Shown: one piece after another, positions 4,089 to 53,732 of the stretch
How the letters are laid out: the number at the start of each line of letters is the position of its first letter
Position numbering within the stretch: position 1 is the stretch's first letter
Assembly: GCA_002788675.1 (NCBI GenBank)
Contig: PFRS01000007.1
Location: 64,270-128,269, forward strand
DNA length: 64,000 nt
Reading direction: 5' to 3'
From: Candidatus Pacebacteria bacterium CG_4_9_14_0_2_um_filter_40_15
GTDB taxonomy: Bacteria; Patescibacteriota; Microgenomatia; UBA1400; PJMF01
Made by a program: the position numbers and the translations under genes
Notes under the pieces: model-generated
Databases searched by the model: none
Seen by the model: only the letters and a program-made list of their open reading frames with translations
Told to the model about the DNA's origin: nothing

Positions 4089-7000
4089 CTACTTTAGAAG
4101 CGCAGAAATCTCAGTTTCAAGTTTTTTCGACCACTTTACCCCATACGGTAAGAGCATTTTTTGTGGCGTACCGCCGTTTGGAATCAAAATTAGGACACTA
4201 TCACTGCCAGGATACTTCTTAAGTAAGGTGCCTAGCTCTTTGAGCGTCTCTTTGGAAGTTTTGCGGGGAATAAATATTTCTTTATGTACTCCACTCGCCT
4301 CATGTGTCAGGTCGCCACTGGTCGGTTTTGAGACTTTTTCGGCCAATAGTTGCATTTCTTCGTCTCTGAAGTCAACTTTAGCTTTAATAAGTGCCACGGT
4401 GTCGGACTGAATGTTTTCTTTGTATTCATCGTAGGTTTTGGGAAAGAATACTACATCGATGGAACCAGTTGCATCTTCGAGCTTTCCAAATGCCATATCT
4501 TTGCCAGATTTTCTGGTTTGCACAATTCTAACGTTTGAAAGCACGCCACCAAACATAAAGGTATTCTGTGCGTGCAGCGTTGGGTCGAGGTCACCAATTT
4601 CTTTTGAAATACGATTAGAAATGGCCCGCAGTTGTGCTGCTAGAGGATGGTCGGTCAAGAAGAGGCCCAGCAGTTCTTTTTCGAATGAAAGGAGCTCTTG
4701 CTGCGGATATTCCGGCATGTTTGGGAAATTATCTTGCAGTTGATTGGCAGAGGTTTCAACTTGTCCAAATAAACTATCCTGACCATCTACACTTGATTCA
4801 AGTTTTGCGGCAGATTTGCGAATACTCTCCAGATTTTCGAGCATGCTCGAACGGGTACCAAATTTGTCCATGGCGCCAACTTTTATGAGGGACTCAAAGG
4901 TGGTTTTGTTCACTTTTCGGCCATCGGTTTCGTGGATGAACTGAGTCAGTGACGTAAAATCGCCAATTTTGTCGCGGACTTCAAGTAAGTTTTCGATAGC
5001 TGCAGAACCAACATTTTTAATGGCATTAAATCCAAACCGAATTGCCCAACCATTAATAGATTTTTCATCTTCTTCAAGTAAAAAGTCGTCACGTGATTTA
5101 TTAAGATCGGGAGGCAAGATTCGAATACCCATTTTTTTACAGTTTTCAATTGCCACGGTAATTTTAAGGTCGCGGTTCATGGAGGTTGAAGCCGACTCGA
5201 TACTCATCAGGGCAGTCATATACTCTTCAGGATAGTTAGCCTTAAGATAGGCAGTTTGGTAGGCAACCATGGCATAACTGGCCGCGTGAGCTTTGTTGAA
5301 ACCATAGTTTGCAAAGGCTTCGATAAAGCCCCAGACTTTTTGGGCAGTGGCACGTTCATAGCCTTTTTCGACAGATTGATCAATAAATATTTTTTTGTTT
5401 TTGTCGAGCAGTTTTTTCTTCTTTTTACCAATAGCACGACGCAATACATCAGCTCCGCCAAGTGTGTAGCCTGCCATGACGTGAGCGATCGACATAATCT
5501 GCTCTTGGTACACCATGATACCGTACGTTTCTTTTAGGACAGGAATAAGGGACTCATGGGGATACTCAATTGTGCTTGGATCATGCTTTCCTTCAATAAA
5601 TTTAGGTATAAGGTCCATTGGACCAGGACGATACAGGGCCACCATAGCGGTGATATCACTAAATTGGTTAGGGCGAAGGGTACGAGCCACACGGCGCATG
5701 CCAGCAGACTCAAGCTGAAAAACTCCCATGGTGTCGCCTGCTGCGAGCAAATCGAAGGTGCGTTTATCATCAAGCGGAATTTTAGACATGTCCACAGCTA
5801 TGTTCTTTTGTTGCTTAATCAGACCGACAGCCATTTGAATAATTGAAAGGTTGCGTAGGCCTAAAAAGTCAAATTTAAGTAGACCAATAGCATTGTCGTC
5901 GACGTTACAGTCTAGCGCGTACATATCGAACTGGGTAATGGTTTTGCCAGACTTAGAATCTTTTTGAATGGCCACATAGTCAGGCAGCGGTTTGTCAGTG
6001 ATAATTATGGCGGCGGCATGGACAGAGCTATGGCGAATATTCCCCTCCACTTTTTTGGCTAGGTCGATGAGTTTGCGGAACTTTGGTTGTTGATAGTAGG
6101 CAGCAAGCTCGGGCACTATTTCGACTGCTTGCTCGAGTGATACTTTTTTACCTGGTTCATTAGGAATAAGTTTAGCAATTTTATCTGGGTCTTCGTAAGC
6201 CATTCCCAGTACGCGTCCAATGTCGCGGATGGCCACGCGAGCTTCCATTTTTCCAAAGGTAATCACGTGGGCCACGTGGTCGGCGCCATATTTATTTGAA
6301 ACATATTTGATAACTTCATCACGACGGGTGTCTGCAAAATCAAGGTCAATATCGGGAGGTGTTGGGCGTTCTGGGTTGAGGAAACGCTCAAACGCTAGAT
6401 CGTGTTCAATAGGGTCAATATCGGTAATTCCAATACAGTACGAAACGAGCGAACCAGCAGCCGATCCACGCCCCGGGCCAACACCAATCCCCTGTGCTTT
6501 GGCCCAGTTCACAAAGTCTTGGGTAATCAGGAAGTATGCTGCGTAGCCTTTATTGTTAATAATGTCGAGCTCATAGTCAAGACGTTTGGCTAGTTCGGGC
6601 GTAATCGTTTCAAATTTTGTTGCACCTCGTTCGTAGGCCATTTTCTTAAGGAAGGTTTCGTAGGTTTCTCCTTCAGGAATTTCGTACTTTGGAAAGATAA
6701 GGTTTCCGGTGGAAATTTCAATATCACATTGGTCAGCAATCTTAACAGTGTTTTCGATAGCATCGGGATAGTCTTTGAAGAGTTCAATCATTTCATCGGT
6801 TGAGCGCATGTAAAAATCGGGACTGTCCATCATCGTCATGCGCTTGGTATCGGAAATTAGTTTGCGTGTTTGGACACACAAGAGCGCATCTTGGGCAATT
6901 GAGTCGACTTGTTCAATGTAATGCACATCGTTGGTGGCCACGAGCGGAATGTCGAGCTCACGGGCTAGTTTGACTTGGATTGGAGTGAGTTCGTTGAGCT

Positions 7001-7553
7001 CTGCAATGTGTGGATGGGCTTGAATTTCAACGTAGAAGCGATCTTTAAAAATTTCTTTGTATTTAAGAAGTTTTTCGCGAGCTTCATCGAGTTTGCCTTG
7101 CAGAATAAGTTTGTTAATCATACTACCCATACAGCCACTGGTGGCAATGATATTGGCATTATATTTTTCGAGCAGTTCTTCATCGATGCGAGGTTTGTAT
7201 GAAAATCCTTCAAAGTTTGCGGTTGAAACCAGTCGGTTAATGTTTTGGTAGCCCTCGTAGTTCATGGCTAGCAGCGTCATGTGTGCTTGGTCGGCTCCCA
7301 TTTTACTCTGTTTATCGAAACGAGAATTTCGGGCAACGTACACCTCGCAGCCAATGATTGGTTTGATGCCAGCGGCTCTGCAGCCGTTATAAAAATGCAG
7401 GGCGCCATACATAGCGCCGTGGTCGGTAAGACCAATGGCTGTTTGGCCCAGGGATTTCACTTTTTCGATTAGTGGTGTAATTTTGCACAGACCATCTAGG
7501 AGTGAGTACTCGGTGTGAACATGTAAGTGGACGAAGTCAGCTTTTTTAGCCAT
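4089..7553 (-). CDS. dnaE: DNA polymerase III alpha subunit (DnaE type)
   Basis: 1154 aa, N-terminal PHP domain motif FVHLHVHTEYSLLDG, and a conserved polymerase core. Confidence 0.9.
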   Translation of the reverse strand: MAKKADFVHLHVHTEYSLLDGLCKITPLIEKVKSLGQTAIGLTDHGAMYGALHFYNGCRAAGIKPIIGCEVYVARNSRFDKQSKMGADQAHMTLLAMNYEGYQNINRLVSTANFEGFSYKPRIDEELLEKYNANIIATSGCMGSMINKLILQGKLDEAREKLLKYKEIFKDRFYVEIQAHPHIAELNELTPIQVKLARELDIPLVATNDVHYIEQVDSIAQDALLCVQTRKLISDTKRMTMMDSPDFYMRSTDEMIELFKDYPDAIENTVKIADQCDIEISTGNLIFPKYEIPEGETYETFLKKMAYERGATKFETITPELAKRLDYELDIINNKGYAAYFLITQDFVNWAKAQGIGVGPGRGSAAGSLVSYCIGITDIDPIEHDLAFERFLNPERPTPPDIDLDFADTRRDEVIKYVSNKYGADHVAHVITFGKMEARVAIRDIGRVLGMAYEDPDKIAKLIPNEPGKKVSLEQAVEIVPELAAYYQQPKFRKLIDLAKKVEGNIRHSSVHAAAIIITDKPLPDYVAIQKDSKSGKTITQFDMYALDCNVDDNAIGLLKFDFLGLRNLSIIQMAVGLIKQQKNIAVDMSKIPLDDKRTFDLLAAGDTMGVFQLESAGMRRVARTLRPNQFSDITAMVALYRPGPMDLIPKFIEGKHDPSTIEYPHESLIPVLKETYGIMVYQEQIMSIAHVMAGYTLGGADVLRRAIGKKKKKLLDKNKKIFIDQSVEKGYERATAQKVWGFIEAFANYGFNKAHAASYAMVAYQTAYLKANYPEEYMTALMSIESASTSMNRDLKITVAIENCKKMGIRILPPDLNKSRDDFLLEEDEKSINGWAIRFGFNAIKNVGSAAIENLLEVRDKIGDFTSLTQFIHETDGRKVNKTTFESLIKVGAMDKFGTRSSMLENLESIRKSAAKLESSVDGQDSLFGQVETSANQLQDNFPNMPEYPQQELLSFEKELLGLFLTDHPLAAQLRAISNRISKEIGDLDPTLHAQNTFMFGGVLSNVRIVQTRKSGKDMAFGKLEDATGSIDVVFFPKTYDEYKENIQSDTVALIKAKVDFRDEEMQLLAEKVSKPTSGDLTHEASGVHKEIFIPRKTSKETLKELGTLLKKYPGSDSVLILIPNGGTPQKMLLPYGVKWSKKLETEISALLK

Positions 7554-17623: not shown

Positions 17624-18343
17624 ATGGTAAAAGAAAGAACAGTTCCCTCAAGACGTGTACGCAAGGAAAAGCAGAAGGCGCTCAGGCAGACCGTTGCATT
17701 GCTTGGTTTTGCAGTTGTAACCTTACTTGTCTTCGTATTTATCATTGTTCCAGCATTTATTAATGGTTTTAATGCATTCCTCGATAATTCTAATCCATTT
17801 GAACCTACCGACAGCATTCCTCCTCAAGTACCTATTCTTTCTGCTCCTGTTGAGGCTACTTTTAGCGCACAAATCGCTGTTTCTGGCTTTGGTGAGCCAG
17901 AAAGTTCACTCATTTTTGTTTTGAATGGTGAAAAGCTGACTGAGCTGACTATTTCAGAAGATGGCACCTTTCAGTCAGAATTGGATTTGCTTGAAGGTGA
18001 AAACACCATTGCTGCCTACTCTGTCGATGCAGCTGGTAATGAATCAGAACTCACAAAAACCTTTACGACTATTCAAGATGCAACCGAGCCAATGCTTGAT
18101 GTTTCTGGCATAGAAGATGGCATGGTTGTTGAAACTCGCAAAAACCAGAGCTTTGAGGTAACTGGAACCACTGACCCTGGTTCAAAAGTGTATGTAAACG
18201 GACGAATTGTCTTTCCAAATTCTGAGGGAGCATTTAAACAGACAGTACTCCTAGCTGAAGGTGAAAATGTGCTCAGTATCGAAGCAATCGATAAAGCTGG
18301 CAACAAAACTTCTACAGAGAAAAAAGTTACCTATATTCCTTAA
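17624..18343 (+). CDS. Membrane-anchored extracytoplasmic protein with Ig-like (bacterial Ig/BIG-type) beta-rich repeats
   Basis: N-terminal basic stretch, then a TM helix (LLGFAVVTLLVFVFIIVPAF), then repeated motifs: GENTIAAYSVDAAGNES and GENVLSIEAIDKAGNKT. The start was chosen at MVKERT. The ORF track begins at 17570. Confidence 0.5.
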   Translation: MVKERTVPSRRVRKEKQKALRQTVALLGFAVVTLLVFVFIIVPAFINGFNAFLDNSNPFEPTDSIPPQVPILSAPVEATFSAQIAVSGFGEPESSLIFVLNGEKLTELTISEDGTFQSELDLLEGENTIAAYSVDAAGNESELTKTFTTIQDATEPMLDVSGIEDGMVVETRKNQSFEVTGTTDPGSKVYVNGRIVFPNSEGAFKQTVLLAEGENVLSIEAIDKAGNKTSTEKKVTYIP

Positions 18344-19526
18344 CGTAGCCGGAAACCAACAAGAGTGTGCTTACCAATACAAATGGTTGGAGTACTGTGT
18401 TATTAAACTGTGTTATCACCAATAAGATTAAGAGCAACTGAAGCAGTTCTTGTTTTCCAGTTTGTTGCAGCCAAGATACTCCGACATATCCCCAATACAG
18501 AAAACTAAGTAGTCCCAGAATTCCCCAGCCTTCAAAAATCATGACTAGTAATGAATCACTTACTTTAGCTTGATTTGGTAGTGACAGAGTTGTATGCGAC
18601 GAAACATCTCTACCTACAACTGAATAGAATGGTCCGTCTCCTATAAGCCAAGCAGTGATGGTGGTAGGTGCTGTGGCAAGAAGCGATGTGGCTCGGGCAG
18701 AGATACTGGCGGTTCTGAGTAAATTGGTGCCCTCACCTTCCGAAAGTTCAGCAATTCCGAGCGCGATAGCAGTAAGTAAAACAAAGCCAGCGCAGACAGC
18801 TAGCAGATCTTTTTTTGCACGTTTTTTTTCTACAAAAATGGTGTGTAGGGCAATGACTACAACACCGAGGTAACTTGCCCGTGAAAAAGTGAGTACAATT
18901 CCAACAAGCATCGCACCAATGTATCCTCGTTTGAATGCGGGATGTTTTTTGAGCAGTGAACTGTGTAGCGCAGCTGAAAGTGCGATTAAAAACAGTGCTC
19001 CCATAAATGCTGGGTCAAGTTGGGTGCCAACCATTCTGTAGTAGTGGTCATCAAACCCTAACGAGTATAGGAACCGTGTATCTGGAATGAACACCAGTTG
19101 CAGTAAACCTGTTGCAAAAGTGATCAGTCCCAGACTCAGTACCCCAGAAACTAATTGTTTTTTTGTTACTGTTGAAAGTGTGAGTACTAATGAAGCAAAG
19201 CCAAAATACAATATAATTCTTCCAAGATATAACAGCGGCAACAATTGGAAGCTATGTAACTGCGCAGCTACAAGCGAAATAACAGAAATTCCCACAAAAG
19301 GAAGCCAGCTCCACATATTTTTGGTTAAAAAAGCCCAAACAGTATTTTTTACTCTGAAAAGTTTGCTGGCATGTTTCACAAGTAGATATGCAGACCACAC
19401 CACAATCAAAACATCGTGTGGATAAATCTTAATAGCTGGGGTTAGGGTAACTCTCCCAAGTTGTCCAAGTGCAAGACACCCAATTAAGATCCAAAGTAAG
19501 AGTGATTCAAGCGTGATTTTTTTCAT
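18327..19526 (-). CDS. O-antigen ligase / Wzy-like polytopic membrane protein
   Basis: 399 aa, about 10 or more TM helices. The last gene of the flippase-GT2 operon, overlapping the GT2 gene by 20 nt. Confidence 0.5.
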   Translation of the reverse strand: MKKITLESLLLWILIGCLALGQLGRVTLTPAIKIYPHDVLIVVWSAYLLVKHASKLFRVKNTVWAFLTKNMWSWLPFVGISVISLVAAQLHSFQLLPLLYLGRIILYFGFASLVLTLSTVTKKQLVSGVLSLGLITFATGLLQLVFIPDTRFLYSLGFDDHYYRMVGTQLDPAFMGALFLIALSAALHSSLLKKHPAFKRGYIGAMLVGIVLTFSRASYLGVVVIALHTIFVEKKRAKKDLLAVCAGFVLLTAIALGIAELSEGEGTNLLRTASISARATSLLATAPTTITAWLIGDGPFYSVVGRDVSSHTTLSLPNQAKVSDSLLVMIFEGWGILGLLSFLYWGYVGVSWLQQTGKQELLQLLLILLVITQFNNTVLQPFVLVSTLLLVSGYVKEYR

Positions 19527-46774: not shown

Positions 46775-47659
46775 CTATTCCCAAATAAGCTCAAAATAAC
46801 TTGTACCTTCTGAATTAGGTTCAGAAAGCATCGTCCCAGAATTTGAGTTCTTTATTTCAGTTAGCGAATGCTCATATTTTTTCATCAGTAACAAATGAGT
46901 GATCAGTGCCGATGGACTATCAAGATACTCATTTGAAAATGAGCGCAGCAGTTCATAGTCATCATTTTTAATTGCTTCAATTGTGAGTGTGTCACGTTTA
47001 TCTGATTCCTCGCTGCTTAAGTAGTGAGAAAAATCAACGGAGGTGACAATAACAGTCTCCGGGGTACTAACCGATTCAAGTAATGCAGAAATTTCAGATA
47101 TAGACTGTAGAGTAAGTGTATTGCTAACAGCCAACGGTATTATTTTTGTGTCAGGAAGAAAGTACTTAAAGTAGTGTACGAGTCCTGCTACCGCATGTTC
47201 GTTTGAAAGCGCGTCGTTTTCAATTGAAACTAAATCACTTTCAGTTAGTTTGTTGATAATATCTTTATCAATATATGTAGTGCCAAAGGGTGTTTCCCAA
47301 TTTTTATTTGAGGTGATTACAGCTGTTGAACCTTGTTCATAGTGATTAGGTGTGAGTAAGAAGATACTCTCGGGATTTTGAGCTTGTATTCGGGACAGTA
47401 CATCAATGATCATCTCATTGGCAACGAGATGATGTGGAATAACTGCTCCCGTTATTTTTGGTGAATCAGCAGTAGGCTGATATTTTTTTAACCCAACACT
47501 AAAGAGCGCTTCATCCCAGGATTTTATTGGTTGGAGATCTTGATGTTCAACTTCATTTTCATTTGCAGTTTGCTTTTGTTGGACTGAGGTCAAAAAAACA
47601 GCGATTGATATACCCACTAAAAAAACTACTAGCAAAAACCAGAGATATTTACTCATCAC
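46775..47659 (-). CDS. MEMO1-family protein (AmmeMemoRadiSam system protein B-like) with an N-terminal TM anchor
   Basis: Motifs GAVIPHHL and VTSVDFSHYLS match the MEMO1 H and DxSHxG metal-site regions. The N-terminal TM is WFLLVVFLVGISIAVFL. It overlaps the A2M gene by 11 nt. Confidence 0.55.
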   Translation of the reverse strand: MMSKYLWFLLVVFLVGISIAVFLTSVQQKQTANENEVEHQDLQPIKSWDEALFSVGLKKYQPTADSPKITGAVIPHHLVANEMIIDVLSRIQAQNPESIFLLTPNHYEQGSTAVITSNKNWETPFGTTYIDKDIINKLTESDLVSIENDALSNEHAVAGLVHYFKYFLPDTKIIPLAVSNTLTLQSISEISALLESVSTPETVIVTSVDFSHYLSSEESDKRDTLTIEAIKNDDYELLRSFSNEYLDSPSALITHLLLMKKYEHSLTEIKNSNSGTMLSEPNSEGTSYFELIWE

Positions 47660-50600
47660 TTATTTGGTCAGAATCAGACTCAGACTCAGGTAGTGTTTGT
47701 TCTTTTATTGGAAGTAATCTGCCTACTATGTCTTTAATCTTCTGTCTCTTTACCACTACCACCATAGCGCCGGAAAACAGTGCAATTACGATGAATACAG
47801 CTACAACAGGGTGCAATCGTAACCACGTAGCTAGAGCTTTAAGATACTTATTCTGGGCCACATATTGTGGGCCAGTGCCAGATACTCTCTCACCTCCAAT
47901 ATATTTGGGATCACGGGTAACTGAGATTTGGTCACTGCCAGTTCGTGCATTAATGGCAGGAACATACATAAGTGCTGTTGTGGCAGGCGGTACTGAAAAC
48001 TCTCCGTTGTTAATGACTCTAGCTTGGTAGCTGAAAGTCATGGAGGATGCGTTTCTGTTTCCAGCATATCTTTCTTCTAGAGAAAAGATTATGCCATCTT
48101 TAGTGAATTCTCGTGTGATACCACCTGAGTAGAATCCAAAGTAATGTTGGCGATAGCCATCAGTCTTTTGGTTCTTAAGTGCAGAGTTCATAGGTATTAA
48201 GCCTGCAGGTAAGTGGTCCTCAACTACCAGATATTGCTGAGTTGAAGTTAATCCTGTCACAGTTAGTCGTATATCTGCAACATCACCAACTTTAAAAGCA
48301 TAGCCTGGGTGAGTTACATTCAGGTACTCTCGAGTAATTGACAAGTCATTACTTACTGCAGTCACAGTGCGATCAGTTACAAAATCCTCTACGAGCACAT
48401 CAGAGTAGAGTTGCCCTTCTCCATTTTGAGTAACAGTGATTGTGGAGCCTTCTGGCTTGATCTGAGAACTCTCAAGTGTAATTGGAGCTATGTTCAATTT
48501 TGAGGAAGTCACCTGTCCAGAAGCAATTTCTTTTCCATCTAGCGTAACTGTGTAGGAGTACGTTGGATTACTCTCTTGAAGCGTGCTAGATAGATCTGTG
48601 ATAAGTCTGATAACTTGGACAGTTCCATACGTATTTCCCCAATAAGCGTTAGTACGAGATTCAACCATGTTTCTAGCTGAAGAGAGAACTACATTTTGAT
48701 AGCCTCCTACTGTTTGGAGCGCTCGTAGTGCTAAGCCTGTAGCAGCTTCGGACGAATGGAAGCCCCACTGTTTTGAAGTGTTCCAGCTATAAATATCTCC
48801 TTGTTTTTCTGCAAGAGAGAGTAACAAGTTAAGACCATTTGTTTCTGGGTTTGAATAGCCATTTTTACTGTTAGCAAGTACTGCTAAGGCAATGTAATCT
48901 GCATCAAGTGAGTTGAGACGAGATACATCAATGAGTTCGGAAGCTTGTCGCTCATTCATAAGCGCGAGTGCATACTGTTTTGTAATAATTTCATGAATCT
49001 CAGTTGAGTCATTATTTCTAAAGAATGTTCTTGCATTAACGAGCATAATGTCATCAACAGCTATTCCATTCGACTGTGCAAGTAGAAGATATTCAAGTAC
49101 ATATGCTGAAATATACGCATCTGAATTACCACTCCACCATCCCCAGCCACCGTCATCATTTTGAAGTTTAGCGAGTCGGGTAAGTCCAGCTTCTGTCATA
49201 TCTGCAATGTCTGTATTTTTGAGCACATCACCAAACAATTCAGGATGACTGGTTGCCAAAATGATTGGTACAAATCGGCTGGTGGTTTGTTCTACACACC
49301 CGTATGGGTAGTCTAAGAGATACTCCATTGCAGCAGGAAGTGTGCCCACTATGCTTGGTGAGAGATTCAAAGAGATACTCGATTTACCTGGATTTGCATT
49401 TTCTGAGAGTGCCACAGTGTAGGTACTGGTACCAATGCCAGTTTGAGACTCTTTCTGCATAAAGCCATAGGCTTGAATTGGCAGCGGCTGCACAATGGCA
49501 TCACTGAGTTCTGCTGTTTGAGTATTATCAGCAATAAAGGTGACTTTGTTATCAAGATTTTCATTTTCCACAGTCACAGGCCAGAACACTTGAATAAAGT
49601 CTCCTGGAGCTATAGTAACTGTTTGTAATGGGTTACTGTCAAATCGTACGTTTTCACTTTTAATACTGACATCTAATGTCTGCTCAGTATCAGTAAAGTT
49701 ATGAACCAAGGCTGACAATTCGATACTGTCCCCTTCTCTAAGGATATCTGGGGTAATAGGACGAATAACAATGTCTTTACCCACAACAATATCAGCAGTT
49801 GACTGGCCAACAATGGTTGAAGTTGTGGCACCAATGCCAGTAATAACCCAAGTGGTTAAGTTATCTGGAAGAGTGAACGTGACTTGTGCTTCACCATTAC
49901 TGTCGGTGTGTACCACTGGGTTCCAATATGCAGTGTCAGCAAAGGTTGTACGGGCATCTCCTTTTTGATTGTGCACATAGATATTGTTTGCGAAATAAGT
50001 CTGATAGGTATCAATTGTAAGATTATAGACGTCGAATGATCCTGCTTGCCACTCGATACTTTCAATTGCAACTTCTTGTCCGTCTGCATCGAGTAATGTG
50101 TCTCCTACAGAGAGCGTATCAGCGGTTTTCCAGCTGTTATGTACCCAAAGTCGGTGTTCAGGTGTTACTTTAAGTGTTCCGTTAAGAATCAGATACCCAG
50201 CTACTTTTGTTTTGGTTGTGTCGATAACTTTTGCCGTGACAAGGCTAGAATCTGTTGGAAATTTTTTAGTTAAGACGGTATCGCCAACTTGAATCATTTC
50301 GATAGCTTTGGTTGAACCATTGGCCATGAGTACCGGTGTATCACCGGTAAAGCATCCACCGCCCATTTCAGCTGCGTTACTGCGAATACCTTCAAGTGAG
50401 TTGCCGTCACTAGTTGATAAATATCGTTCTTTCCAAAAATTGGTAAAGATATCACCAATGGTATCTGAAGCGAGTTCGTAGAGTGATTTATCCACTGCCC
50501 AGACAGCAAGTTCGCCAGAGATTGGATTTTGTGCATCATCTGTAGCTTTAATGTTAACGGTTACCGTGTCTCCAGGACCATATTTGGGTTTGTCTGGAGT

Positions 50601-52847
50601 TATAGATATATTCATCTTTTTACTTGAAGTTGAGACTTTTATTTGCTTTTGAGAGTTATGCAAATGAGACTCTGCAAAGCTATCAGTACTCAGATAGACG
50701 TTTGGCATGTCTGATTCTTCAATTGGCAACGTGAATTGTGCCGAGTTGCCTGTGATACTCAAGATCTGATACCTTCGGACTCTATCTCTGAGCACACTCA
50801 CAAATACATCTCGATCTGCGACAGCTGAAAAGATTTTTATGGTAGCATTTTCTCCAGGTGCATAACTCTCTTTATCAAGCTGAATGTCAAAAGATCCATT
50901 TTGTAGATCGCTGTATGGCGTATCATTATCATATACATAGGCATACATAGTTCGGATGACGGTGTTACCTCGTGTATCTTTTGTTCTCACATCAAACAGA
51001 TAACTTCCTGGTCGATGTGCTGGAAGTGTAATTGTTGCTTCTCCAGAATTATTAGTAGTTACGTTTATTTTTTCGAGTACCTCATGTTCTTTTCGGTAAT
51101 TTGATCGTCCATTTTTTTCTTCTCTGATGTATTGCGTTATGCTAGGGGTAATTTCTATAGGAATATTCCTCACAGAAACCACTGGATCATTAGGAACAAG
51201 AATGATGGGGAGATTAATGGTGCCTCCATTTGTCACTCCAGTTGAGTAATTCTTTTGGTAAATACCGAATTCAGCCTCGTGAACCAGCACATTTTTTCTG
51301 GCTTGCACAGGATTTCCTGTTTCATCGACAAAACTGACTTCTACTGAGTAGACTTTGTCTGAAGAAATATTTTCACTAATATCGTTGAGAGTCTTGCTTT
51401 GTATTTCTGCTAAACCTCTCTCATTAAGAGTTACAGAGCCAGAGTCAATCTTTTTTCCATAGGAATAACCATATCGGTAATCGTCGCTGAGTAGAGGTAA
51501 ATCTTCTGAATAGTATCCATATTGGTAGTAGTTTGAGGCGTAAATTGTGTAGGTCACCTTTTGGTTTGCAAGAGGTTGTCCGCTAAAGTATGTTCCAGTT
51601 ACGTCAAGAGAAACGGTGTCACCTGCAATGAACTCAGTTTCATTTGCATCAACATTTAAACTATATTCGGGTTTGCGATAGTTCTCGACGCTAAAACTTG
51701 CATATGAAGAGTAATCTTCTCCCATTTCAACAGTAACACGGTAGTAACCAGTTCCACTTGAAACAGGTACTTCAAAGCTACCGTCAAGAGTTCCTGTTGA
51801 AGACAAAGTGAAGTTCTTTTCATACACAACGGTATCATTCCAACCTTTGTATAAAACCACATGTGCAATGCCTGAAGCTGGCGAATACACAGCGTCGTTA
51901 TCATTACGGACAATAGATTTAAAGTTAACAGTATCACCAGGCTGATATATTGGTCTGTCAGTAAAGACGAAGAATTTTTTATCGATTGATTGAGCAGGGA
52001 AGCGGTTGTCCCAATAGCCGGTATCAACTGCAGTTAGATTAATTGGCACAAGACTGATTTCACCATCTTTTTCTACTAGTGCTACATCAGCATTTTCAGT
52101 GTAATTAAGTTCGACAGTGCCTTGTTCATTGGTGAGCTGGGAGTCAAGCTGGGTAAGTTTGTTTGTTAAATCATAGGTGGTAATTTGTACATTTGACTCA
52201 CTTCTTAAATCTGTAAAACTTTGGGTCCAAAAAACGAATTTGTTATCACCTTCCTTGACCAGTGCTCCTAGAGAGGATCTTACCAACATTGACGTAGCGA
52301 CAAGATCTCCATCATCACCCTTAACGACAACGTACCAGACGCCACTTTCTTCAAGTGGAAGAGCAATTTCAGTTCCGTTATTCGATAGATTCTCAGAAAA
52401 CTCGGTTACTTTTTCAAAAGAGGATGTGTCTATTGAAAGAGCAAGTTTTTTTCTTTCATCATCATGTAATAGGTAGCCGAGCATATCAGCTTTATTCACT
52501 TTAAATAGCGATACTGTGACACTTTTTGGTAGATTTCCATACCCATTGATTTCTAATTTTGGAGCTTGTGTAGAACTCAGGGAAAGGACACCCCCATTAC
52601 TATACCCGTAGTAACTGTTGGGAATGGTGAGCCAGAGGCTTCCATTGGATTCACCAAGAACCTTTTCTAGAGATTCATCTGCTGTTTGTTGAGATGTCAC
52701 GCTTGGTGTTGTCTGAGAAACGTTAAAAAGTGTGCGTATAAATGTTGCCTGAGAATAGGTTACTGCAAATGCAGTAATTAAAAAAGCAGCTATAAAAACA
52801 GAAGCTGTTGGGTTGCCAAATATTTTTTTTGCCAGATTTTTAAACAT
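47649..52847 (-). CDS. Alpha-2-macroglobulin family protein (1732 aa) with a CVEQ thioester, N- and C-terminal hydrophobic anchors, and an embedded Hint domain
   Basis: Thioester motif YGCVEQT (Cys codon at 49298-49296, residue 1184). A2M motif RTTFADTAYWNP...TLPDNLTTW. alpha/alpha toroid GGWGWW. The N-terminal signal/TM is VFIAAFLITAFAV and the C-terminal TM is VVAVFIVIALFSGAMVVVV. Confidence 0.8.
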   Translation of the reverse strand: MFKNLAKKIFGNPTASVFIAAFLITAFAVTYSQATFIRTLFNVSQTTPSVTSQQTADESLEKVLGESNGSLWLTIPNSYYGYSNGGVLSLSSTQAPKLEINGYGNLPKSVTVSLFKVNKADMLGYLLHDDERKKLALSIDTSSFEKVTEFSENLSNNGTEIALPLEESGVWYVVVKGDDGDLVATSMLVRSSLGALVKEGDNKFVFWTQSFTDLRSESNVQITTYDLTNKLTQLDSQLTNEQGTVELNYTENADVALVEKDGEISLVPINLTAVDTGYWDNRFPAQSIDKKFFVFTDRPIYQPGDTVNFKSIVRNDNDAVYSPASGIAHVVLYKGWNDTVVYEKNFTLSSTGTLDGSFEVPVSSGTGYYRVTVEMGEDYSSYASFSVENYRKPEYSLNVDANETEFIAGDTVSLDVTGTYFSGQPLANQKVTYTIYASNYYQYGYYSEDLPLLSDDYRYGYSYGKKIDSGSVTLNERGLAEIQSKTLNDISENISSDKVYSVEVSFVDETGNPVQARKNVLVHEAEFGIYQKNYSTGVTNGGTINLPIILVPNDPVVSVRNIPIEITPSITQYIREEKNGRSNYRKEHEVLEKINVTTNNSGEATITLPAHRPGSYLFDVRTKDTRGNTVIRTMYAYVYDNDTPYSDLQNGSFDIQLDKESYAPGENATIKIFSAVADRDVFVSVLRDRVRRYQILSITGNSAQFTLPIEESDMPNVYLSTDSFAESHLHNSQKQIKVSTSSKKMNISITPDKPKYGPGDTVTVNIKATDDAQNPISGELAVWAVDKSLYELASDTIGDIFTNFWKERYLSTSDGNSLEGIRSNAAEMGGGCFTGDTPVLMANGSTKAIEMIQVGDTVLTKKFPTDSSLVTAKVIDTTKTKVAGYLILNGTLKVTPEHRLWVHNSWKTADTLSVGDTLLDADGQEVAIESIEWQAGSFDVYNLTIDTYQTYFANNIYVHNQKGDARTTFADTAYWNPVVHTDSNGEAQVTFTLPDNLTTWVITGIGATTSTIVGQSTADIVVGKDIVIRPITPDILREGDSIELSALVHNFTDTEQTLDVSIKSENVRFDSNPLQTVTIAPGDFIQVFWPVTVENENLDNKVTFIADNTQTAELSDAIVQPLPIQAYGFMQKESQTGIGTSTYTVALSENANPGKSSISLNLSPSIVGTLPAAMEYLLDYPYGCVEQTTSRFVPIILATSHPELFGDVLKNTDIADMTEAGLTRLAKLQNDDGGWGWWSGNSDAYISAYVLEYLLLAQSNGIAVDDIMLVNARTFFRNNDSTEIHEIITKQYALALMNERQASELIDVSRLNSLDADYIALAVLANSKNGYSNPETNGLNLLLSLAEKQGDIYSWNTSKQWGFHSSEAATGLALRALQTVGGYQNVVLSSARNMVESRTNAYWGNTYGTVQVIRLITDLSSTLQESNPTYSYTVTLDGKEIASGQVTSSKLNIAPITLESSQIKPEGSTITVTQNGEGQLYSDVLVEDFVTDRTVTAVSNDLSITREYLNVTHPGYAFKVGDVADIRLTVTGLTSTQQYLVVEDHLPAGLIPMNSALKNQKTDGYRQHYFGFYSGGITREFTKDGIIFSLEERYAGNRNASSMTFSYQARVINNGEFSVPPATTALMYVPAINARTGSDQISVTRDPKYIGGERVSGTGPQYVAQNKYLKALATWLRLHPVVAVFIVIALFSGAMVVVVKRQKIKDIVGRLLPIKEQTLPESESDSDQISDE
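49968..50354 (-). other. Hint / bacterial-intein-like (BIL-type) domain inserted in the A2M protein (residues about 832-960)
   Basis: Block A is CFTGDTPVLMANG...VGDTVL. Block B is VTPEHRLWVH (TxxH). Blocks F/G are FDVYNLTIDTYQTYFANNIYVHN. The +1 residue is Gln, not Cys/Ser/Thr. Confidence 0.75.
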
Positions 52848-52940: not shown

Positions 52941-53732
52941 TTATTCAGTAACAACTACATATGCTTCCATAAGCTCTACAGTAGCTGTGGCTGCTTTTCC
53001 ATCGGTGGTAGTTTCAAACTGTTGCCATTTTGAACCATCCCAGCCCATGATGGTGAGCGTGCCTTCTTGTTTAGCTCTTATGGTAAGTTCAGCAGAGCCA
53101 GAAAGGAGACGATTACTGGTAAGTGAGTATATTTCTGAGGCCAGTGTGCCTTCAAGTTCGCCGGGATATCCAGGTGAGTTATAAATAACTAACAGGTTTG
53201 CTGAAGCTAAATCTTTTGATTCAATCTGAAAGAACGCATCTTTTGAAGTAAAGGCTGTTTCGCCATCATTTTCAATGTACTTCCAGTCGGACTTGAGGTC
53301 AAATTCCTCACTTCCTTCAAAGAATGCTCGAAGCTCTCCACCTTTAATATCTTCATGATAGGTACACGATCCACCAGCACTGCAACTTCCCAAAAGAATT
53401 TTTTCCGTGGCAGGCACTGAAGTTAGCTCAATCTGACCAAATGCACCTTGAACGAGTGTCCCTGTTTGGTATTCAAGTTCATAATCGACAGTCGCAGCAG
53501 GTTTTTTGAGTGTATCTACAACGATACTAATATTGCGAGCGTCAACTGGAACAATCTTAACATATGGTCGCTCATCCACATCAATAACATTGTAGTTTCT
53601 AACTGTTTTTTTCTTTTTTGTTGTTTCTTCAACAACTTCGGCAGGTTTTCGAGTCGTTGAGTATACTCCAACACCTACGCCAAGTAAGACTAAGACGGCA
53701 ACAATTCCGGCAATAACTTTTTGATTCTTCAT
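52941..53732 (-). CDS. Hypothetical membrane-anchored extracytoplasmic protein (263 aa)
   Basis: N-terminal TM (VIAGIVAVLVLLGVGVGVY), Lys-rich linker. No recognisable family. Confidence 0.4.
   Translation of the reverse strand: MKNQKVIAGIVAVLVLLGVGVGVYSTTRKPAEVVEETTKKKKTVRNYNVIDVDERPYVKIVPVDARNISIVVDTLKKPAATVDYELEYQTGTLVQGAFGQIELTSVPATEKILLGSCSAGGSCTYHEDIKGGELRAFFEGSEEFDLKSDWKYIENDGETAFTSKDAFFQIESKDLASANLLVIYNSPGYPGELEGTLASEIYSLTSNRLLSGSAELTIRAKQEGTLTIMGWDGSKWQQFETTTDGKAATATVELMEAYVVVTE

Follow-up and report, generated by a model that had tools for sequence, protein, structure and literature searches.

Alpha-2-macroglobulins (A2Ms), the complement components C3, C4 and C5, insect TEPs and bacterial A2Ms are all described as being switched by an external protease that acts at a bait region or at the ANA domain. 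According to Harwood et al., the alpha'NT segment threads a channel in the native state, and any discontinuity in the 'cleavable moiety' (bait or ANA) frees this segment and triggers the conformational change; because furin cuts the N-terminal end of the ANA, the trigger travels towards the C-terminus (PMC9352918). Type-A bacterial intein-like (BIL) domains, for their part, form a thioester at the N-terminal junction and cut the C-terminal junction by asparagine cyclisation, with some splicing by the newly formed alpha-amine (PMC4031507; PMC7664689). According to reviews, cleaved products predominate (PMC4031507; PMC7664689), and single mutations reportedly turn BILs into efficient splicers (PMC7664689). 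Here we analysed a 64,000-nucleotide stretch of contig PFRS01000007.1 from an uncultured Candidatus Pacebacteria bacterium (the window), in which the gene for an A2M homologue encodes a Hint domain of the BIL type within its bait loop. Judged by its conserved residues, this Hint is very probably active and excises itself at G831|C832 and N960|Q961, and the homologues that we collected indicate that Hint-in-A2M is a conserved architecture of the Candidate Phyla Radiation (CPR), found in more than 180 clusters in Microgenomates, Uhrbacteria and Gracilibacteria. The gene, the Hint and its immediate flanks are as follows.

47649-52847, minus strand: gene for the A2M homologue (1732 aa), Hint-bearing, thioester-containing and membrane-anchored (open reading frame (ORF), Pfam, homologues)
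49968-50354, minus strand: Hint domain (type-A BIL/PT-HINT-like), residues 832-960, 129 aa, 14.2 kDa (profiles, AlphaFold2 (AF2), Foldseek)
50352-50354, minus strand: Hint Cys832 (Cys1, block A; sequence)
50154-50165, minus strand: Hint Thr895-x-x-His898 (TxxH, block B; sequence)
49968-49973, minus strand: terminal His959-Asn960 of the Hint (sequence)
50355-50471, minus strand: linker/bait segment, residues 793-831, with a conserved 'HSLEGI'-type motif, a variable stretch and AE-x-GGG (alignment)
50355-50378, minus strand: flexible residues 824-831, of low confidence in both AF2 models
49953-49967, minus strand: C-flank QKGDA, residues 961-965, with Gln961 at +1 (alignment)
49962-49964, minus strand: Lys962 at +2 (alignment)
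49917-49952, minus strand: R966-T-T-F969-ADTAYWNP, the putative alpha'NT equivalent (alignment, PMC9352918)

A first-pass annotation of the window, made from the sequence alone, had called a complete mini-Hint with Cys1, TxxH and a terminal His-Asn. Its translation is exact: 49968-50354 on the minus strand reads CFTGDTPVLMANG ... VTPEHRLWVH ... NNIYVHN and continues into QKGDARTTFADTAYWNP, with Asn942 as the block F residue. The best Pfam model is PT-HINT (PF07591), which matches residues 846-960 with 51.0 bits against a cutoff of 27.7 (E 2.3e-13), and the Vint profile matches residues 831-909 (30.1 bits, cutoff 27); Hint, Hom_end_hint, Intein_splicing and the NCBIfam models intein_Nterm and intein_Cterm match the region below their cutoffs. 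By these scores the profile match is far beyond chance. Among solved structures, the nearest sequences belong to 8w20_A (E 4e-10) and to the Clostridium thermocellum BIL 2LWY (E 2.4e-8). In an AF2 model of residues 640-1075 (mean predicted local distance difference test (pLDDT) 85), the Hint has pLDDT above 90, with short low-confidence linkers on either side and a flexible stretch upstream (811-828); in a larger model of residues 190-1075 (mean pLDDT 86), the flexible parts shrink to 824-831 and 961-969. Foldseek aligned the Hint model with 2LWY at a template-modelling (TM) score of 0.85 (root-mean-square deviation 1.8 A, 30% identity) and with the Tetrahymena BIL2 domain at 0.78-0.82, and the A2M model also matched A2M, C3, C4, C5, ECAM and SaA2M. 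Profile, fold, block A nucleophile and block B TxxH thus all place the domain in the Hint superfamily.

Within that superfamily, Cys1, the His-Asn end, the lack of a +1 nucleophile, the kinship with 2LWY and the surface host point to a type-A BIL. With the C. thermocellum domain it shares the Hint fold, the N-terminal Cys, TxxH, the C-terminal His-Asn, the missing +1 nucleophile and a block-F 'VYN' that has Asn in place of the usual intein Asp. Like type-A BILs in general, it presumably has a secreted or surface host and would be expected to combine N-S acyl shift and Asn cyclisation with dominant cleavage and a share of aminolytic splicing (PMC4031507). It differs from them in its A2M host and in occupying a functional trigger loop, whereas BILs lie in arbitrary variable regions, and also in its strict conservation and vertical descent across CPR classes, its invariant Lys+2/Gly+3 and its GGG N-flank; its activity is a prediction. 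The earlier assignment to the BIL class stood, but not the corollary that the domain can only autocleave: a missing +1 nucleophile does not imply this, because type-A BILs can splice by aminolysis (PMC4031507) and, in a Tetrahymena BIL, attack of a Lys epsilon-amine on the thioester forms an isopeptide (PMC8616854), and the invariant Lys+2 and Gly-1 seem compatible with such rejoining. That Tetrahymena domain (BUBL BIL2, 6TMM/6Y75) resembles ours in structure and in carrying its Hint thioester on a Gly-rich C-terminus, and is the precedent for Lys epsilon-amine resolution (PMC8616854); it differs in serving eukaryotic ubiquitin-like conjugation and in its weak sequence match (E ~2e-3), and the A2M has no ubiquitin-like domain.

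Other members of the superfamily fit less well. PT-HINT toxins provide the best Pfam model, and the Hint of 8w20_A lies near the C-terminus of a 1368-aa protein, but a pretoxin HINT of polymorphic toxins was rejected: no toxin domain or family was detected in the A2M, and 772 residues of it (MG, CUB/TED, C-terminal MG domain bMG10 and transmembrane helix) follow the Hint. A Hedgehog/Hog domain was rejected as well, since the Hint has an invariant terminal His-Asn and leads straight into the alpha'NT segment. A degenerate, inactive Hint was rated unlikely, the catalytic residues being invariant in two independent sets of homologues. Degenerate Hints normally lose their catalytic residues.

The host position was defined by several alignments. 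In profile searches the Hint, above cutoff, is set between the A2M_BRD and A2M domains, five residues upstream of R966-x-x-F969, and the thioester motif CVEQ (1184-1187) follows 224 residues past Asn960, in agreement with the roughly 220 estimated in the first pass. HMMER matched ECAM and SaA2M to the A2M at E 1e-35 to 1e-38; against ECAM, query residues 163-809 align up to about 902 and residues 982-1265 from about 956, with the Hint in the unaligned gap (query 810-981, ECAM ~903-955), to which the bait of ECAM also belongs. MAFFT alignment with E. coli YfhM and Hint-less homologues places the insertion at ECAM G949|D950 and equates R966 with ECAM R956, which bears out the proposed bait-region location: the disordered bait of ECAM is R923-L942, and once the bait has been cut, its R956, G958 and N963 attach to the C-terminal MG domain (PMC4498604). 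Only R732 and F735, in human A2M, are listed by Harwood et al. as conserved alpha'NT residues (PMC9352918). In the 112 Hint-bearing clusters described below, R966 is invariant and F969 is F or L. The human A2M segment, RKYFPETWIW, fits the R-x-x-F-x-D-T-x-x-W pattern of the R966 segment.

By alignment, then, the Hint is a clean insertion at the bait position, where the ANA sits in C3, C4 and C5. Both are folded domains just upstream of the alpha'NT R-x-x-F; in the complement proteins a cut on the N-side of the ANA gives a two-chain latent form, and a cut on its C-side frees the alpha'NT and exposes the thioester (PMC9352918). The ANA, however, has an unrelated helical fold and is cut by external furin and convertases, whereas the Hint is the putative catalyst of both cuts. 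Hint-bearing A2Ms have 4-10 residues ahead of the alpha'NT Arg, a shorter spacer than the roughly 16 residues of C3.

The remaining features of the host protein, and the gene that follows it, are listed here.

52746-52805, minus strand: hydrophobic stretch at the N-terminus, residues ~15-34, presumably acting as a Sec signal or signal anchor and cleaved (sequence)
residues 291-387, minus strand: MG2 (Pfam, above cutoff)
residues 536-629, minus strand: bMG6 (Pfam, above cutoff)
50472-50888, minus strand: A2M_BRD, the A2M bait-region domain, residues 654-792 (Pfam, 72 bits)
49665-49934, minus strand: A2M domain of Pfam, residues 972-1061, immediately C-terminal to the Hint insertion (71 bits)
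49020-49343, minus strand: TED (TED_complement), residues 1169-1276 (Pfam, above cutoff)
49287-49298, minus strand: thioester motif C1184-V-E-Q1187, inside the TED (sequence and Pfam)
47958-48338, minus strand: bMG10, the C-terminal MG domain, residues 1504-1630, with a conserved ..LMY.PE motif (Pfam, above cutoff)
47751-47810, minus strand: C-terminal transmembrane helix, residues ~1680-1699, with KRQK and then an acidic tail behind it (sequence)
46775-47659, minus strand: Memo-like gene (PF01875) that overlaps the stop codon of the A2M gene (Pfam)
Memo-like genes at other loci: L002 8639-9406; L004 3926-4708; L081 9792-10625; L083 10244-11152; L084 6649-7581

Candidatus Pacebacteria metagenome-assembled genomes (MAGs) contain an identical protein under the name 'hypothetical protein CO156_00955'. 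The MG domains, BRD, TED with CxEQ and C-terminal MG domain of our A2M mark it as a putative bacterial type-I A2M. With ECAM/YfhM and SaA2M it shares this domain set, a membrane-tethered, extracytoplasmic disposition and a bait about 225-265 residues upstream of the thioester. The bait of ECAM, in contrast, is unstructured and has no inserted domain, and ECAM combines an N-terminal lipid anchor with PbpC, the A2M partner in Gram-negative bacteria, where the CPR protein combines a C-terminal transmembrane anchor with a Memo-like partner. Among 109 full-length A2M homologues, 102 have the N-terminal hydrophobic segment and 103 the C-terminal transmembrane helix; because of these two elements, the A2M presumably has a type-I anchor, and its ectodomain, including the Hint, would be extracellular. 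BIL and PT-HINT domains usually occur in secreted proteins. Only two cysteines are present in the whole A2M, Cys832 (Hint Cys1) and Cys1184 (of CVEQ), both thioester-forming nucleophiles. Exactly two cysteines occur in 81 of 120 homologues, Hint-bearing and Hint-less together, and only these two positions are conserved (Cys1184 in 120/120 homologues, Cys832 in 112/112 Hint-bearing ones).

Conservation was assessed in two sets. The first comprised the 120 best homologous clusters (34-62% identity to the A2M), of which 112 carry the Hint and 8, including Moranbacteria, lack it, so that the suggested survey of relatives recovered both forms; the Hint-bearing members come from Pacebacteria, Daviesbacteria, Roizmanbacteria, Woesebacteria, Woykebacteria and other Patescibacteria. 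The second was drawn from an exhaustive phmmer search over 1.84 billion cluster representatives, which returned 173 matches at E <= 1e-30; the best 150 of these 173 include 76 A2M-sized (>1,500 aa) single-Hint proteins. The insertion is thus no isolated oddity. G831, C832, F833, H898, N942, H959, N960, K962 and R966 are invariant in all 112 Hint-bearing clusters of the first set, T895 is present in 111 and Gly830 in 108, and Gly963 is nearly invariant. The second set has CF and HN in 76/76; Lys occupies +2 in 73/76 clusters and +1 in a further two. At +1 the first set has Q in 68 clusters, E in 21, D in 15, G in 5 and Ser in 1/112, and the second set has Ser in 3/76; because Ser is so rare there, efficient canonical splicing was apparently never selected. 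The Hint is thus structurally intact, and all the residues needed for N-S acyl shift and Asn cyclisation are present and under strong purifying selection.

The A2M thioester has been less constant than the Hint. CxEQ is present in 120/120 nearest homologues, yet 19 of the 76 Hint-bearing A2M clusters of the second set have lost it and kept an intact Hint (CF...HN-xK), among them P0151, P0164, P0176, P0185, P0195, P0198, P0221, P0232 and P0248. Named members of this group belong to Candidatus Uhrbacteria and Candidatus Gracilibacteria, and in several the Hint Cys is the sole cysteine. In these lineages the Hint has outlived the A2M thioester, so its role is not tied to thioester firing.

The Hint behaves as a resident of its host gene. 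It is conserved to the same degree as the A2M domains, with a mean pairwise identity of 51% against 46% for the rest of the protein (39-61% for single domains); it diverges in step with the host protein (Mantel r 0.72, reached by 0/999 permutations), and GC content is 0.411 in the Hint against 0.405 in the gene. Recent horizontal insertion was ruled out by the host-like GC and the co-divergence, and at 129 aa, with no room for an endonuclease, the Hint is a non-mobile mini-domain. The Memo-like gene lies directly after the A2M gene in both Hint-bearing and Hint-less CPR loci; because both kinds of A2M sit directly upstream of it, they are orthologous members of one A2M-Memo module. At the junction, Hint-bearing forms read ...AE-GGG|CF...VHN|QK-GD-ARTTFADTAYWNP and Hint-less forms ...AE-KGG|GG-GDQRTVFKDTAYWNP, QK being missing from the latter. 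A simple outgroup position of the Hint-less forms is not supported: one of them, P0099 (L084 1828-6642), is 58% identical to the Hint-bearing P0018, while 72 of 111 Hint-bearing proteins are more distant from P0018. P0099 is most simply explained as a Hint loss nested among Hint-bearing forms, as it appears on a crude neighbour-joining, midpoint-rooted tree that leaves the other seven Hint-less forms unplaced. Its junction, AERGGG|GGNPNR, has lost both the Hint and QK and retains a Gly run, and runs of Gly codons at both junctions could have mediated insertion and deletion of the cassette.

We tentatively favour, at somewhat less than an even chance, the reading in which a type-A-BIL-like Hint excises itself and leaves a chain break in the bait loop. 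The A2M would be exported by Sec and fold outside the cell; Cys832 would attack the Gly831 carbonyl in an N-S acyl shift to give a thioester; Asn960 would cyclise, and the 14.2-kDa Hint would be excised at both junctions. Since no +1 nucleophile is available, the Gly831 thioester would be mostly hydrolysed, yielding two chains of ~88 and 84 kDa that a shared MG domain holds together, with a new N-terminus, QKGDA-R966xxF969, at the alpha'NT plug. The N-side cut would then correspond to maturation, like that by furin in C3, and the C-side cut, which would free the alpha'NT, to convertase-like activation; while still attached, the Hint would form a bulky stopper on the alpha'NT, whether the loop is finally cut or rejoined. 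As to the net product alone, a chain break and a rejoined loop appear about equally probable. A chain break would be expected to trigger the A2M conformational change, and self-triggering or maturation cleavage of the A2M, as suggested in the first pass, may be the outcome. A more specific proposal, which we regard as rather less likely than not, is that the Hint is an autocatalytic stand-in for the activating protease or convertase, with which an episymbiotic CPR cell fires its surface-anchored A2M, possibly on cue, although no protease attacks it; in a variant of it, a Gly831-Lys962 isopeptide re-closes the loop.

Several points weigh against the chain break. Hint activity is deduced from conserved residues, and the C. 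thermocellum BIL, the closest solved relative, can also splice without a nucleophile (PMC4031507). An aminolytic route would fit the invariant Gly-1 and Lys+2/Gly+3; constitutive self-firing would waste a CxEQ kept in 120/120, and the 19 of 76 Hint-bearing A2Ms without it have no thioester to fire. The loop from EGI to R966, counted without the Hint, spans 14-18 residues (mean 15.2) against 14-16 in Hint-less orthologues, and this matching length hints at selection on a rejoined loop. An intact loop is evidently functionally acceptable, for the Memo operon also contains Hint-less orthologues, of which P0099 falls within the Hint-bearing forms. AF2 placed the alpha'NT segment at low confidence even in the larger model (pLDDT ~39), so the plug and stopper geometry remains conjectural. 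Most of these points speak for a rejoined loop, an account that we rate only slightly less probable than the favoured one. After excision, the alpha-amine of residue 961 or the epsilon-amine of Lys962 would attack the Gly831 thioester and produce a single chain of ~173 kDa, a classical protease-triggered A2M with a Gly-rich bait of ~15 residues, in which the Hint had been a domesticated 'safety catch' that arms the trap on removal, or a near-neutral stuck element. Both chemistries are documented, nucleophile-free splicing in type-A BILs (PMC4031507) and the Lys isopeptide in a BIL (PMC8616854), and the conserved residues suit them (Gly831 in 112/112 and Gly830 in 108/112; Lys+2 in 112/112 and 73/76); Lys stands at +1 in related tandem-Hint arrays, whose linkers read HN|KGGG|CF. 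The agreement in loop length, the Hint-less orthologues of the same operon with their nested loss, the strictly kept classical latent machinery (CxEQ, R966 and the MY motif of the C-terminal MG domain) and the survival of the Hint where the thioester was lost, as expected for an element that merely needs removal, all fit. BILs are nevertheless reported as mainly cleaving (PMC4031507; PMC7664689), a Ser or Thr at +1 would make ligation efficient and is almost never present, a neutral element flanked on either side by Gly-codon microhomology should have disappeared more frequently, and Lys962 is a conjectural nucleophile.

A conditional or intermolecular use of the Hint, in the manner of Hedgehog or BUBL, is improbable. 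Here an external nucleophile borne by a host or target (for instance a Lys, a lipid amine or the stem peptide of peptidoglycan) would capture the Gly831~Cys832 thioester and thereby become covalently attached to the 88-kDa N-terminal part; Asn cyclisation would then free the alpha'NT and expose CVEQ where present, making the A2M a cue-dependent, two-thioester attachment device on the episymbiont surface. The two conserved cysteines would be two thioester formers (exactly two Cys in 81/120), the protein is surface-anchored, the Gly-Gly-Gly before the Hint recalls the ubiquitin-like GG of BUBL (PMC8616854), and CPR bacteria are largely episymbionts, in one of which A2M-domain surface proteins were noted (PMC8080830). 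The proposal is entirely speculative, however: no sterol- or adduct-recognition region lies past the Hint, the invariant terminal His-Asn favours simple excision, Hint-less orthologues occupy the same operon and no acceptor was identified. It is very improbable that the Hint is a non-processing structural module that stays in place for binding or as a steric obstacle, with the flanking linkers left to proteases. The ANA of C3, C4 and C5 sets a folded-domain precedent at the same position (PMC9352918), and AF2 flanks the Hint with short flexible linkers, but the invariance of Cys1, TxxH, His-Asn and Gly-1 across more than 180 clusters would not be expected of a structural role. A canonical mobile mini-intein with class-1 splicing is scarcely credible: it would account for blocks A, B, F and G and for the weak matches to the intein N- and C-terminal models, but the +1 residue is Gln961 here and Q, E, D or G throughout the family, which excludes canonical class-1 splicing, as the first pass had rightly argued. 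Nor are there signals of mobility, since homing endonuclease is absent, the Hint co-diverges with its host and its GC is host-like, and it lies in a variable extracellular loop instead of a conserved active site.

Full-text searches, with subscription-only papers outside their reach, found no literature linking A2M with an intein, Hint, BIL or PT-HINT domain; no paper describing a Hint-bearing A2M was found, in keeping with the first-pass impression that the arrangement is undescribed. One CPR paper mentions A2M-domain surface proteins and suggests only a defensive role (PMC8080830). The novelty is that a known self-processing domain has been recruited to the trigger loop of a known conformational-trap protein and deeply conserved there: the moiety at the bait position is itself a predicted self-cleaving enzyme, maintained over very deep divergence in the CPR, a large and little-understood bacterial radiation. 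If the Hint cuts, bacteria would have evolved on their own an autonomous trigger or a two-chain maturation like that of C3; if it rejoins the loop, protein ligation without a nucleophile, or through a Lys, would occur naturally in an extracellular protein. Either outcome, if true, would be a new control of the A2M/C3 conformational switch, with two thioester centres, Cys832 and Cys1184 as sole cysteines, at work in one protein, and would bear on the plug-in-channel trigger of the alpha'NT, on the purpose of BIL domains and on CPR surface biology. A self-excising bait cassette may also be of use in engineering A2M-based protease capture, and the system is small enough for direct testing, with a ~48-kDa fragment or the ectodomain.

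A scan of genome contigs with a single-sequence query recovered six Hint-bearing loci. One locus, L004 (DATMWB010000014.1, 54 kb), is binned into an archaeal MAG labelled 'Candidatus Methanoperedens sp.' and carries a Hint-bearing A2M together with a Microgenomates-type Memo-like gene; the contig probably derives from a CPR genome and was binned wrongly, and would not mark an occurrence in archaea. Diverged Hints in Armatimonadota and Chloroflexota had been suggested by tblastn extensions (query ~120-208), and this candidate was dropped: Pfam analysis of the full ORFs of three such A2Ms (L008, L056, L078) found no Hint and showed plain A2Ms, so that these matches give no sign of the architecture outside the CPR. 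Public automatic labels on some members of the family read 'Intein C-terminal splicing domain-containing protein' or 'polymorphic toxin-type HINT domain-containing protein'. At locus L083, a serpin gene follows the Memo-like gene.

The window is otherwise ordinary chromosome, with dnaE, ileS, pyrG, gatA/B, ftsZ, an mraZ-mraW-PBP cell-division and cell-wall cluster, mur ligases and three tRNAs. A custom Hint hidden Markov model found no second Hint in the 64 kb, and the DnaE of the window (Pol III alpha, 1154 aa, 4089-7553, minus strand) has only the usual DnaE Pfam domains and no Hint. Neither the 263-aa ORF directly upstream of the A2M gene (52941-53732, minus strand) nor a 399-aa ORF at 18327-19526 (minus strand) has a Pfam match.

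A word-indexed homologue search of low sensitivity with the Hint alone returned a single 168-aa PT-HINT protein. The nearest non-A2M relatives, P0122, P0123, P0124, P0125, P0126, P0128 and P0131, carry 2 to ~7 Hints in tandem; to our knowledge, such arrays have not been described. They share the GGG|CF...HN|K-G flanks with the A2M Hint, which differs from them in being single. Their linkers are minimal (HN|KGGG|CF, HN|KG|CF or HN|K|CF), and free peptides, Gly-Lys ligation or polymerisation are conceivable outputs. Some of these proteins carry pilin-like N_methyl, Tim44-like, LamG or PKD domains, and one, from Candidatus Omnitrophota, is annotated as 'polymorphic toxin-type HINT domain-containing protein'.

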